Shown piece after piece: positions 17 through 43,930 of a stretch of DNA of 43,930 bases. The notes beneath the pieces are model-generated. The model saw only the letters and a program-made list of their open reading frames with translations, was not told the origin of the DNA and ran no database searches. Within the stretch, counting starts at the first letter, position 1. Each line of letters starts with the position of its first letter. Location: sequence record PP197160.1, one strand, 5' to 3'. The DNA comes from Escherichia phage phiHAO78-1. The position numbers and the translations under genes are program-made.

Positions 17-94
17 CCCCCCCCCCCCCCCCTACAGCCTAGCTGGGCTGGTTAGAATTTGAAATATTGAACAGCAATTAGGTCAACAACAACC
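17..94. repeat. Left copy of terminal direct repeat (poly-C tract of 16 followed by 62 identical bases)
   Basis: Positions 33..94 are identical to 43869..43930; both are preceded by a long C homopolymer (16 C here, 14 C at the other end). The 16 bases before the C tract are also similar (12 of 16) to 43839..43854. Confidence 0.7.
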
Positions 95-192
95 AAAACA
101 ACAAAGCCCACAAGGAGGAAAGGAGCCGCCGGTGGACTTCGCTGACTCAATACCATTCTGATGATAAAACTAACCACCTCCGAAGCGGGGTT

Positions 193-2127
193 TTATATTA
201 AACCATACACTGCATTGTGTATTGTTAAACTGCCAATCGAGGTCCCAACATTAAAGTTCACCTCAGCCTTGTATGCTCCTTGAGGGACTGAATCCACTAA
301 AGCATAAAAATTGAATGTGTCTCCTACTGGGATGTTATACCCTATGGAATCTGCGACAGCATTCCCAGCCTGATCAAGGAATCTAATGGACGCTTGGGCG
401 GTTGTTGAATTTTTAGCCCAAAAACCAAACTGGAAATATCTACCAGGCTCACAATCAATAACCGATTGGGTGAAGTTAGCTGAAGCATCAGAGGATGGGA
501 CATCAATAACTATTGATGTTGAGAACATAAGGTCGTTAGGTACATCATTGTTATATGATGCCGTAACAACACCTGCTCCAGTTTGAGCTAATGACCAGTT
601 AGATATAGACAAAAACTGACCTGAGCCGTTGCTTAAACTATTTATAAACGGACTAACTATTGCACCTAAATCCCAGTTAGTTGTTATAAACCCTGCTCGA
701 GGGAAGCAACCTCTGGATATAACTTTGCGGCTAGAGCCTCCAATTAACTGTCTAGTAGGGAATCCAGTGGCAATAGTAGCGTTCCCGTACAAAGGCAGGG
801 AGCAATTACTAAGAATAACTACACCATCACCATTACTTACCACAGGAACAGAACTAAATCCGTCAGGCAGGAGTACTGTTGAGTCTTTGATGCTTAATCT
901 TGAACTCCCTGCAACGGTAAAACCAACAAAACTCTGGCCAGGCTGATATTCTATATTTCCGTTGGAAAAAACAACCGTAGCATTATCAGATAGTGCTATA
1001 GTAGGGTCAAAATAACCTGCTTTCTTACCAGCAGGAAGTGAGCAAGATTCAAAAATAAATTGTCCATTCTTGAATGTAAACGGGCCTCCATTATCTACGC
1101 ACCAGCAATGGTTGAATTTTATAACTTCGCCAGAGTTAGCTGGTGAATTGAAAATAACAGAATCTGTAAAACTTCTTGACAACGTACATTTATCAAAAAG
1201 GATACGATATGCATTATCAAGAAACTCAATTCCGGCAGTTGAGATAAACCCACTATTAGAGATTCTTAACTCTGATACTTCACCACTAGTAGAACCACCG
1301 ATAGCCAATTTCCTGGAACCTTTTCCGACGAATGACACGCCACTCATCAAAGCAGTTGCGTTAACTGCATCTCTGTTAGTGTAATCCGCGCCTGTATTAA
1401 TAATGGTTAGGTAGTAGTCACCGGTTACGGAAGCAGATTCTGTTAAAGTACATTTATTTTTTCCAATAAGCGCGCCTTTTGCTACGTCTAAAACAATAGG
1501 TGTTGTTATCTCACCAGAAACAGGGACTACACAGTCAAATCCGGCAGAGTTTATTTTGTTGATGAATACCGCCAAATCTTCGGTTCCAGTATAGCCAGCA
1601 TCATACACATCCACGGTGCCGTTGAAGAATTTTCTTTTCCATACCACCCCACTTCCTGAGAAGGTAACAATATTGTCTATAGTGGTATCCTCGCTAACAG
1701 CTACCATAATACCACCACCAAGATTAAACCCGCTCACATATGAATCAAGAATTATGGAATCGCCGATTGATCCTGATATTGATGATAACTCAGAAACTGA
1801 TGATGCAGTCCCTATATAAGATAAGCCATTTGGTTTATTTAAATCACTCCTCAGAGTAGCATCACCAACACTAACCCACGTACTAGGGCCAATACCACCG
1901 GTTGATGTAGGGGTTGAGTCAGCGGGAACAGCTTTAGGGAAAGCTCCATCCCATGTATAGCACTGGCCACCTGCAATATACCAAACAGCATCAGTATTAT
2001 TATTTAATGTAGCACCCTCCTCAAAGCTACCATCAACAAGTGTTAAACCTGCCTCTGCAAGACTACGACGCCACTGTTCACGGTCATTACCTTTACTTGT
2101 ATTATAAATTAAACCTGTAAGTGCCAT
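193..2127 (-). CDS. Tailspike / receptor-binding protein, beta-helix-like, possible polysaccharide depolymerase; no T7 gp17-type N-terminal anchor
   Basis: 644-aa ORF at the extreme end of the genome after the lysis genes; Gly/Ser/Thr/Asn-rich composition with recurring short beta-strand-like segments typical of parallel beta-helix tailspikes; start codon at 2125..2127. Confidence 0.7.
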   Translation of the reverse strand: MALTGLIYNTSKGNDREQWRRSLAEAGLTLVDGSFEEGATLNNNTDAVWYIAGGQCYTWDGAFPKAVPADSTPTSTGGIGPSTWVSVGDATLRSDLNKPNGLSYIGTASSVSELSSISGSIGDSIILDSYVSGFNLGGGIMVAVSEDTTIDNIVTFSGSGVVWKRKFFNGTVDVYDAGYTGTEDLAVFINKINSAGFDCVVPVSGEITTPIVLDVAKGALIGKNKCTLTESASVTGDYYLTIINTGADYTNRDAVNATALMSGVSFVGKGSRKLAIGGSTSGEVSELRISNSGFISTAGIEFLDNAYRILFDKCTLSRSFTDSVIFNSPANSGEVIKFNHCWCVDNGGPFTFKNGQFIFESCSLPAGKKAGYFDPTIALSDNATVVFSNGNIEYQPGQSFVGFTVAGSSRLSIKDSTVLLPDGFSSVPVVSNGDGVVILSNCSLPLYGNATIATGFPTRQLIGGSSRKVISRGCFPRAGFITTNWDLGAIVSPFINSLSNGSGQFLSISNWSLAQTGAGVVTASYNNDVPNDLMFSTSIVIDVPSSDASANFTQSVIDCEPGRYFQFGFWAKNSTTAQASIRFLDQAGNAVADSIGYNIPVGDTFNFYALVDSVPQGAYKAEVNFNVGTSIGSLTIHNAVYGLI

Positions 2128-2135
2128 TATATCTC

Positions 2136-2738
2136 CTACCCTTTCATGAGTGCATTAACAGCAGACTCAACAGAGTCATACCGATTACCAATGGCCTTTG
2201 CTTGCCACTGCCTACGTTCCCACAGACCCCAGCACACTTTATTGCGCTGCCCATTAATATACTGAGAGCAGTCAAAGGTCCAGCGGTTACCTCCCTTGTA
2301 CACCCAACCAGTGCCAGGGGACTTCTGTTGATATTTACTAATGTAACGCCAGTTCAGCACAGCCTTTCCGGCCGCAGTATAATCTAGGTGCTTGAGATGC
2401 CGCTTCACGGCACTACCATCGAAGCCAGCTACACCTACATTATAAATAAAGTCTACAGACCCTATCAGAGCCACATCAGAGAGCTGCATAGGAAGCCCGT
2501 CAAGAGCCTTAGCATGTTCCCCTGCTGATTCTATCAGTTGCTTCTGACAGTCGCTCAGAGTGGCTCTCTGGCCCATTTTGACGCCCTTTGTCTCCCCATA
2601 GCAGATTGTAGGGACGCCGGCACTATCCTTGTAGGCAGTAAGGCTTAAGCCTTCATTGTGTTGGATTACTTCAGTGATAGCCCCACCGAGCATAGTGACC
2701 CCGGCGAGGGCTGCCACAACCTTAGTCCTTAAACTCAT
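2136..2738 (-). CDS. SAR endolysin (T4-lysozyme-like, GH24 muramidase)
   Basis: N-terminal Gly/Ala-rich weakly hydrophobic segment (KVVAALAGVTMLGGAITEV) typical of a signal-anchor-release domain, followed by the lysozyme catalytic motif EGLSLTAYKDSAGVPTICYGET (Glu-Asp-Thr triad). Confidence 0.8.
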   Translation of the reverse strand: MSLRTKVVAALAGVTMLGGAITEVIQHNEGLSLTAYKDSAGVPTICYGETKGVKMGQRATLSDCQKQLIESAGEHAKALDGLPMQLSDVALIGSVDFIYNVGVAGFDGSAVKRHLKHLDYTAAGKAVLNWRYISKYQQKSPGTGWVYKGGNRWTFDCSQYINGQRNKVCWGLWERRQWQAKAIGNRYDSVESAVNALMKG

Positions 2739-2973
2739 ATTTAATAGCCCCCTTACGTGCGTGCTCTTCTAGGAGCTTGTACGTGCGCCGTTTGTAGTAC
2801 GCATTCCACGCCAGGGTTAGCACTGCACATACCGTTGCAGTGATGAAGCTGATAACACTCCAGTCCCAACTCATTAGCTCTGCCAACCAGCCTCCTGAGA
2901 CTGTAGCGCCAGTAACTGCTGCACCTGCCCGGGTAGCGAGATCTGCCCCAACTACGTCTCCTACTTTAATCAT
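2722..2973 (-). CDS. Holin, pinholin-like
   Basis: 83 aa with two hydrophobic segments (first weakly hydrophobic, second WSVISFITATVCAVLTLAW) and a charged C-terminus; lies immediately upstream of the SAR endolysin and overlaps its start. Confidence 0.6.
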   Translation of the reverse strand: MIKVGDVVGADLATRAGAAVTGATVSGGWLAELMSWDWSVISFITATVCAVLTLAWNAYYKRRTYKLLEEHARKGAIKYEFKD

Positions 2974-42686: not shown

Positions 42687-42715
42687 AATCTAGCTTATGT
42701 CCTTCGCGGTGTCAA
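42687..42715 (-). promoter_or_regulatory. Candidate sigma70 early promoter
   Basis: Minus strand TTGACA (42710..42715), 17-bp spacer, TAGATT (42687..42692), in the non-coding leader upstream of the early genes. Confidence 0.5.
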
Positions 42716-43475
42716 CTCTTTTTATTGAGTATCTAACCCTTCACACCATCTAGCTTTAATCCGGTGGAGTCTCCCGACTCTACCCCGTTCAGCACCTCAG
42801 CGCCTCCCGGTGATTGAACTATAGCGCCAATAAACCAAAAGAAGCAAGCACTTTTTTAAACTTTTTATCACTGTGAGCAAAAAGGGTAAGCAGGGCAAAC
42901 ACTTAGCCAATGCTTCCATTCTAGGGATAGCTCTAGAGATAGCCCAATACTAGCCAATGCTACTCAGTGCTAACCAATGCTAACCAACACTACACGGCAC
43001 TACATATAGCAGAACGTAGCGACGTAACGTCAGTGAAGGAGCGTAGTGAAGCGGTGACTGTGTAGGTAATGCTTACTCCCTACGGTCGTAATATAGGGCA
43101 TTACTAGGGGATACTAGTGAGTAGTAGTGAGTAGTGTGTATGTAGTGCCCTAAAACCCTCCTACTCCTGTAACATCATTTCCAAATAGCTTTCGAATGAA
43201 AGTAAGCACAAGGGATAGCGCTGGATAGTGTGGTGTGGTGGAAGTGCGCCCTAGTGGGGAGCGCGCAGCGTAGCATATAATCGGCACAATGTAAAGCACT
43301 AGCGATAGCACTAGGGATAGCACCACGGCGCACTGGGCGGCCCACTCGGCACATACTATGGCCCACTACTGGCCCACTGGGCGGCCCGCTAGAGGTCCGC
43401 AAAATAAGCAAGGCAGAGCGCACCCCTATGGCCCACAGAGAGCACGCAGAGCACGCAGAGATAACCCCAGTGCCT

Positions 43476-43515
43476 CCCAGAGCTTCCCAGAGCTTCCCAG
43501 AGCTTCCCAGAGCCT
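43476..43515. repeat. Tandem repeat, 4 copies of the 10-bp unit CCCAGAGCTT
   Basis: Three exact copies and a fourth with one substitution (CCCAGAGCCT); preceded by a duplicated AGCACGCAG unit at 43441..43460. Confidence 0.85.
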
Positions 43516-43854
43516 CTATGAGTAGCACACAGTGATAGGCGTAGGGTAGCACTAGCAATAGCCAATAAGGCACGCAGGGAGCCGCTGAGGCCTCCTAGAG
43601 CGCACTAGCTGGCCCTAACTGACCCTCCCAGTGCCCCCCCCCTCATTTATACGCTAGGCACCCCCTATGGGGGCACTGGGGCGCGTTGAGGGTGAGGGAG
43701 GGCCTCGCGTGAGTCTAACAAATTTCGAGTTCAGGTATACACCTGCCCTGGGGTGAAGTCCTTGTGATGTTCCAGACACTTCCCTTGTACCCACTTACAG
43801 ATGTCATCGTAGGAGCTGTGCTTATTCATATAATGCTTCCCGTCCTTCCAGAAT

Positions 43855-43930
43855 CCCCCCCCCCCCCCTACAGCCTAGCTGGGCTGGTTAGAATTTGAAA
43901 TATTGAACAGCAATTAGGTCAACAACAACC
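43855..43930. repeat. Right copy of terminal direct repeat (poly-C tract of 14 followed by 62 identical bases)
   Basis: 43869..43930 is identical to 33..94; the homopolymer length differs between the copies (14 vs 16 C). Confidence 0.7.

Follow-up and report, generated by a model that had tools for sequence, protein, structure and literature searches.

Three probably unrelated noncoding G:C homopolymers in the genome record of the Drulisvirus Escherichia phage phiHAO78-1

We studied the long C runs in the genome record of Escherichia phage phiHAO78-1 (PP197160.1), the whole of whose 43,930 nucleotides (nt) we refer to here as the window. The record is likely to be a complete Drulisvirus genome written in reverse, with its direct terminal repeat (DTR) collapsed to a single copy and the sequence opened within a homopolymer, and its long C runs are likely to be three unrelated noncoding G:C homopolymers. 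One is a G-rich run within the terminal repeat, another lies at the joint of an apparently acquired tailspike cassette, and the third is in the loop of a hairpin in the early region.

Four C runs of at least 8 nt are found in the window, namely, C16 (positions 17 to 32), C11 (41705 to 41715), C9 (43634 to 43642), and C14 (43855 to 43868), all on the plus strand and with exactly the positions and lengths given in the original prediction, which relied on the letters alone. As that prediction also stated, none of them overlaps an intact open reading frame (ORF), all being located in the 7.1% of the genome that is noncoding, and since every gene is on the minus strand, they read as G in the mRNA sense. 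Expected numbers of runs were calculated analytically with a first-order Markov model over the nonredundant 43,838 nt, that is, excluding the overlap between the contig ends described below. C runs of at least 9 nt were found at three loci (0.26 expected), those of at least 11 nt at two (0.019 expected), and those of at least 14 nt at one (0.0004 expected). The excess of long C runs is therefore beyond chance, and their description as unusually long was justified. All the tract lengths (9, 11, and 14 to 16 nt) exceed the level of ca. 8 nt for frequent slippage. There is also a strong strand asymmetry in homopolymers, with six C runs of at least 6 nt on the plus strand and not a single G run of that size (3.5 to 5.1 expected); across the whole window, the coding strand has no run of six or more C residues.

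Megablast comparisons placed the backbone of the genome in the T7-like genus Drulisvirus (Autographiviridae, Slopekvirinae), with 92 to 96% identity to Escherichia phages AV102, EC22.5-2, Minorna, and ZH5, Klebsiella phage KPV811, and Shigella phage SFN6B. The window is written as the reverse complement of the standard orientation, with every long ORF on the minus strand. The ORFs are contiguous, and no frameshifts were found at runs of five or six C residues, indicating that homopolymers were not generally overcalled in this sequence.

The ends of the window overlap exactly over 76 nt (19 to 94 and 43855 to 43930). In the 16 nt that precede the overlap (1 to 16 versus 43839 to 43854), there are four mismatches, and the 5′ copy has a C run with 2 additional nt. 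The 3′ copy of this flank, CCCGTCCTTCCAGAAT, can be translated as FWKDGK and has the same bases as the HNH endonuclease homolog of Klebsiella phage P929 at three of the four mismatched positions. The 5′ copy, CCCGCCCTGCCAGACA, has four substitutions and differs from that homolog at three of them. We therefore take positions 1 to 32 to be contig-end sequence of low quality that arose when a long homopolymer was read through. Along similar lines, other records are broken in homopolymers, such as that of ZH5, which ends inside the DTR tract, and that of SFN6B, with a C11 at both its start and its end. In short-read assemblies of T7-like phages, the DTR is often lost and artifactual end repeats of ca. 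79 bp are added (PMC10438801).

The sequence at which annotated relatives end is found inside the window. The annotated termini of JKT5, SAA231, and KpV475 read ...GTTGAGGGTGAGG, and the same sequence ends at position 43697, the conserved terminus ...GGGTGAGG corresponding to positions 43690 to 43697. After it comes GAGGGCCTCGCGTGAGTCTAA, the sequence ahead of the right repeat, and the resulting junction (43697|43698) is also present in AV102, ZH5, and many IMG/VR contigs with a collapsed repeat. The inner boundary of the DTR of JKT5, SAA231, and KpV475, CAAAATAAGCAAGGCA|GAGCGCACC, aligns to 43415|43416. With both boundaries matching those of annotated repeats, we predict a DTR of 282 nt that is present only once (43416 to 43697, minus strand), with position 43697 as position 1 in the standard orientation. 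The physical end is accordingly predicted at 43697|43698, the repeat having been collapsed by circular assembly. The annotated or reported DTRs of relatives measure 216, 222, 243, 267, and 290 bp (216 bp being the annotated repeat of KP34), and in the case of Drulisvirus fHe-Kpn01, the ends have been determined experimentally and are blunt, with a DTR of 222 bp (PMC7291057).

We also considered whether the repeat shared by the contig ends (1 to 94 and 43839 to 43930) could itself be the physical DTR and rejected it, since the conserved terminus is internal and is followed by sequence unique to the right end, and since 76 exact nucleotides followed by four mismatches and a 2-nt indel are far from the identical copies of 216 to 290 bp typical of the genus. 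This overlap (1 to 94) is redundant and artifactual. The nick reported in fHe-Kpn01 was discarded as an origin of the tracts, given that it is found at position 7873, far from every one of them (PMC7291057). With the terminus inside the window, C16 and C14 are two representations of a single locus, which reduces the number of independent tracts from four to three. The 2-nt difference that had been attributed to sequencing error or genuine slippage between terminal-repeat copies is thus a difference between two contig ends and provides no reliable evidence of biological slippage. Proximity to the genome ends, also proposed originally, holds for C9, 56 to 64 nt from the left end, but not for C11, ca. 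1.98 kb from that end, or for C14/16, 158 to 171 nt outside the right DTR. Within the predicted DTR, there are four tandem 10-nt units (CCCAGAGCTT) at positions 43466 to 43515, and the region from 43150 to 43620, in which relatives are very divergent, is rich in short CTAG-containing repeats.

By comparison with relatives, the longest tract (C14 at 43855 to 43868, G14 on the coding strand, duplicated as C16 at 17 to 32) appears to lie exactly at the joint of a host-range cassette swap, as Drulisvirus homology stops at the tract and homology to the cassette of phage PhAPEC5 starts in it. On the DTR side, positions 43698 to 43854 match the 3′ end of a gene that comes last in many Klebsiella drulisviruses, that for the HNH endonuclease. 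What is left of this gene is a truncated pseudogene comprising the last 40 codons (43734 to 43853, minus strand, with the stop codon at 43731 to 43733), 77% identical to residues 112 to 150 of the P929 protein. The latter has 151 amino acids, and its HNH_3 domain (residues 44 to 87) is absent from the remnant. On the other side is the distal part of the presumably acquired cassette (33 to 161, plus strand), where positions 33 to 83 are homologous only to the N4-like phages PhAPEC5/7 and positions 63 to 161 (plus strand) retain the 3′ part of a convergent ssb gene, ending in ...GGKEPPVDFADSIPF and a stop codon. Next to it is a bidirectional rho-independent terminator (174 to 191), at a site whose homologs are annotated as terminators in ASO78B and PhAPEC5, located between the ssb remnant and the tailspike gene (193 to 2127, minus strand).

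The tailspike (644 amino acids) contains the Pfam domain Tail_spike_N, and its gene appears to have been acquired horizontally, being 92.7% identical in DNA sequence to the tail fiber gene of the Escherichia coli O78 siphovirus ASO78B, with further matches in rV5-like, Kuttervirus, and N4-like phages. Homology to the Drulisvirus backbone resumes only at ca. 2170 to 2218. The tailspike came with a fragment of the convergent ssb gene of the ASO78B phage type, which suggests O78-type host specificity and transfer of a cassette across phage families. In AV102, Minorna, SFN6B, and ZH5, the HNH gene is truncated at a different point in each case, and each genome has its own tailspike, which indicates recurrent tailspike exchange at this locus.

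Both of the sequences that meet at the joint end there in a short C run. The HNH side reads ...CCAGAA(C)TCCCC|GCGCC, and the PhAPEC5 side reads ...AAAAACCCACCCC|TACAGCC, with homology to the N4-like backbone (phage G7C) ending right at the PhAPEC5 joint point. No relative in the phage collection spans the joint of phiHAO78-1, and a pattern search of IMG/VR gave no match. A plausible sequence of events is that the cassette, consisting of tailspike, terminator, and ssb remnant, took the place of the resident tailspike together with most of the HNH endonuclease gene, the last one, and that joining took place at a CCCC microhomology between HNH ...CCAGAA(C)TCCCC and donor ...CCCACCCC|TACAGCC. Slippage would then have lengthened this short run. 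The assembler may in turn have failed to read through the run, leaving overlapping contig ends, the two lengths of 16 and 14, and the miscalled first 16 nt. The G14-16 tract would thus be a recombination scar, and a neutral one.

A further example of a long C run at such a joint was observed in IMGVR_UViG_3300045988_000365, a relative with a C18 (top strand) at its own joint and an even shorter HNH remnant; the joint is again at the native CCCC of the HNH gene and 60 nt from the contig end. Apart from the truncated HNH gene at 43734 to 43853, which is the fifth of its kind, the window has four intact genes of HNH_3 homing endonucleases, all on the minus strand (18433 to 18894, 30098 to 30490, 34603 to 35040, and 36703 to 37170). 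A direct repeat of 68 nt in three copies (30279, 34817, and 36938) turned out to be conserved coding sequence of these paralogous genes and is unrelated to the tracts.

C11 (41705 to 41715, plus strand) is located in the apical loop of a hairpin between the early genes at 41737 to 41952 and 41068 to 41655. This hairpin (41687 to 41739, minus strand) is the second of two copies, the first (40895 to 40942, minus strand; very stable, with a folding energy of −30.7 kcal/mol, z = −6.0) having the same architecture. In both RNA folds, a small internal loop separates the lower stem from a 10-bp upper stem, which is capped by a tetraloop. The family, which reads GCCTATAGC...GCTATGTGAA on the coding strand, is conserved in relatives, with extra copies in, for example, the IMG/VR locus L050; scans with Rfam and for tRNAs gave no match anywhere, including this family. 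Relatives have a C4 in place of this run, as seen in five aligned GenBank genomes, in 12 IMG/VR contigs detected by pattern match, and in all 29 scorable IMG/VR loci, making the C11 a lineage-specific expansion of 7 nt. Folding indicated that with these 7 nt, the apical loop has 9 nt instead of 4 and the stems stay intact, for which reason the expansion is probably tolerated. Thus, C11 is probably a tolerated expansion, by slippage, of a conserved G4.

Recurrent growth of this kind was also seen in L050, which has an intergenic G10 where the window has GGGG (40951 to 40954) and, upstream of the same gene, another G10. As for the hairpins themselves, each has a conserved irregular stem of ca. 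20 bp with an internal loop and is situated between genes of one transcript, an architecture that we take to resemble that of the early RNase III sites of T7. On this analogy, the hairpin with C11 is a putative RNase III-type processing hairpin. The capsid gene is followed by a small ORF and, ca. 30 nt downstream of the latter, by a different homopolymer, A9 at 17150 to 17158 (T9 on the coding strand). A terminator is annotated at this site in Minorna, and close relatives have runs from A8 to A16, with A16 in AV102, by which comparison it is another length-variable intergenic homopolymer.

Given that C11 and C14/16 are both unique to this assembly, an alternative is that they are sequencing or assembly artifacts, absent or much shorter in the real phage, and that the DTR tract alone is real. 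The contig is broken in C14/16, with miscalled bases beside it, and two such tracts make this genome an outlier. However, both flanks of each are intact and collinear with relatives, the coding regions are free of homopolymer frameshifts, and relatives that were sequenced independently contain similar isolated tracts (G10, C11, and C18). We therefore regard a purely artifactual origin as unlikely. As a specific source of internal tracts, the poly-G read tails of two-color sequencing chemistry were rejected, since they should be unable to bridge to the correct downstream flank. Tolerated noncoding G:C homopolymers and assembly artifacts are both already known kinds of thing.

By our sequence comparisons, C9 is the only one of the three tracts that is conserved. 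In the standard orientation, it is a G9 on the top strand within the DTR, and a G-rich run starting at +54 to +57 on the same strand was found in all 34 distinct Drulisvirus left ends analyzed. In 23 of them, it is a pure run of G9 to G15, with the G9 of the window at the short end of the range, and in the other 11, it is interrupted (G5TG4 type, e.g., GGGGGTGGGG). The check for conservation in relatives that had been proposed earlier thus comes out positive for C9, genus wide as a G-rich run, and negative for the other two, C11 being C4 in the relatives scored and the C14 joint being spanned by no relative in the phage collection or IMG/VR. The idea of slippage-prone tracts fares in a similarly mixed way, as the lengths are in the expected range and that of C9 varies from 9 to 15 among relatives, but the difference between 16 and 14 is uninformative.

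The outer neighbor of the run is a terminal module, CCTCAC-N18-CCCCCATAGGGGG-TGCCTA, that includes the palindrome CCCCCTATGGGGG (43661 to 43673), a conserved left-end box whose distance from the end is that found in T7. The terminal box as a whole (43661 to 43697, minus strand) looks family wide. Position and conservation indicate that the Drulisvirus G run is most likely part of a cis-acting region for end processing or packaging, in which its exact length would drift by slippage. A search of the literature on poly-G/C tracts in Drulisvirus and on the terminal box found nothing relevant. A perfect inverted repeat of 12 nt (43627 to 43638 and 43669 to 43680; CCCAGTGCCCCC and GGGGGCACTGGG) pairs the start of C9 with the G arm of the terminal palindrome, and relatives keep only the G/C core of this pairing.

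A more specific role can be envisaged in which the G runs of the coding strand, chiefly that in the DTR, form a G-quadruplex or an rG:dC R-loop that pauses or terminates the single-subunit RNA polymerase of the phage. Pausing would couple transcription through the concatemer junction (CJ) to end processing or priming, as at the mitochondrial conserved sequence block II (CSB II) and the CJ site of T7. The constancy of position and strand in the 34 left ends is in favor of such a role, as is the window version, a canonical quadruplex motif (at least three G residues, with spacers of 1 to 7 nt, four times; 43613 to 43642, minus strand). The interrupted variants presumably resemble the G6AG8 of CSB II. 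There is also a precedent in T7, whose complex of polymerase and lysozyme pauses at the concatemer junction and thereby starts maturation (PMC3276506). Nevertheless, the canonical three-tetrad motif is found in only 9 of the 34 left ends, no phage promoter was identified upstream of the right DTR, the candidate motif there being without further copies in the genome, and T7, T3, SP6, and phiKMV have no such run. That candidate, TTAGACTCAC, examined as a promoter reading into the right DTR, was discarded because it is essentially unique in the genome and hence gives no promoter consensus.

For these reasons, structure formation or polymerase pausing by the G runs is, in our view, very unlikely. 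A somewhat broader version, analogous to CSB II or the CJ site of T7, is quite doubtful, too, namely, that the DTR run is a functional cis signal, whether a pause, an R-loop, or a quadruplex, for RNA polymerase or terminase, and that the sporadic growth from G4 to G10-14 is an expansion bias of replication. If it were true, the sporadic expansions elsewhere would reflect a bias of the phage replication machinery toward expanding G:C runs.

The original prediction had further proposed phase-variable elements. Scans for sigma-70 promoters and terminators around the tracts gave only chance-level matches, with the exception of the terminator between the tailspike gene and the ssb remnant. Contingency switches, in which slippage toggles a gene or promoter in part of the population, are highly improbable, for although lengths of 9 to 16 nt are within the hypermutable range, strains differ in the length of the DTR tract (9 to 15 nt), and C11 is the spacer of a sigma-70-like site on the antisense strand (TTCACA-17-TAGGAT), no tract is in an intact ORF or between genuine promoter elements, C14/16 being flanked by two pseudogene fragments, C11 being in a hairpin loop, and C9 being in the DTR, the sigma-70-like site scores 9 of 12 in a genome with three such matches against 2.8 expected, and the lengths of 16 and 14 are an assembly duplicate.

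The reading that we prefer, a complete, reversed Drulisvirus genome with a collapsed DTR and three unrelated homopolymers, has several points against it. C11 and C14/16 rest on this single assembly. Two extra tracts of at least 11 nt, where 0.019 were expected, are unusual even among relatives and leave room for an artifact specific to this data set or for a special mutational process. The jump from 4 to 11 nt at one locus is large for simple slippage. At the joint, CCCACCCC may belong to the N4-like backbone instead of the cassette, and the microhomology model is not unique. Finally, the function assigned to the DTR tract was deduced solely from position and conservation.

If our reading is correct, it has consequences for genome curation, since the contig ends of this record would not be virion ends, the first ca. 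32 nt would be unreliable, one DTR copy would be missing, and the true genome would measure ca. 44.1 kb. The locus from the tailspike to the right repeat appears to be a hot spot of host-range cassette exchange, here with a homopolymer at the joint. The G run of the DTR, beside a T7-like box, is a testable candidate cis element in a genus that is widely used against Klebsiella.

In order to put these tracts into perspective, they can be set beside systems that are already known. The poly-G/C contingency loci of Neisseria, Haemophilus, and Campylobacter are similar in having G:C runs of 9 to 16 nt whose lengths vary between close relatives, but they act as gene switches from within ORFs or promoter spacers, which no tract in the window does. 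CSB II is similar in being a length-polymorphic G run on the nontemplate strand that is read by a T7-like polymerase. This is an analogy only, and the Drulisvirus run differs from CSB II in that the canonical quadruplex motif is not conserved and an upstream promoter was not identified here. The hairpins of the early region are like the early RNase III hairpins of T7 in being two conserved, irregular structures of ca. 21 bp with an internal loop and located between early genes, although they have no sequence similarity to the T7 sites, and one copy has the C11 loop expansion. The contig ends resemble the end artifacts of T7-like phage assemblies, with an overlap of 76 to 94 nt, a DTR present once, and a cut in a homopolymer that is hard to sequence, but in the window, the overlap is not an exact k-mer, as it includes an indel and four substitutions. 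As for the terminus itself, the run of G9 to G15, ca. 17 nt further in than the box, is specific to Drulisvirus, whereas variants of the CCCCCATAGGGGG box are found in T3 (with a C8 run in the box), SP6, KP34, and phiKMV, and the left end of T7, TCTCAC-N19-CCCCCATAGGGGG-TACCTA, matches the module of the window in both sequence and distance from the end.

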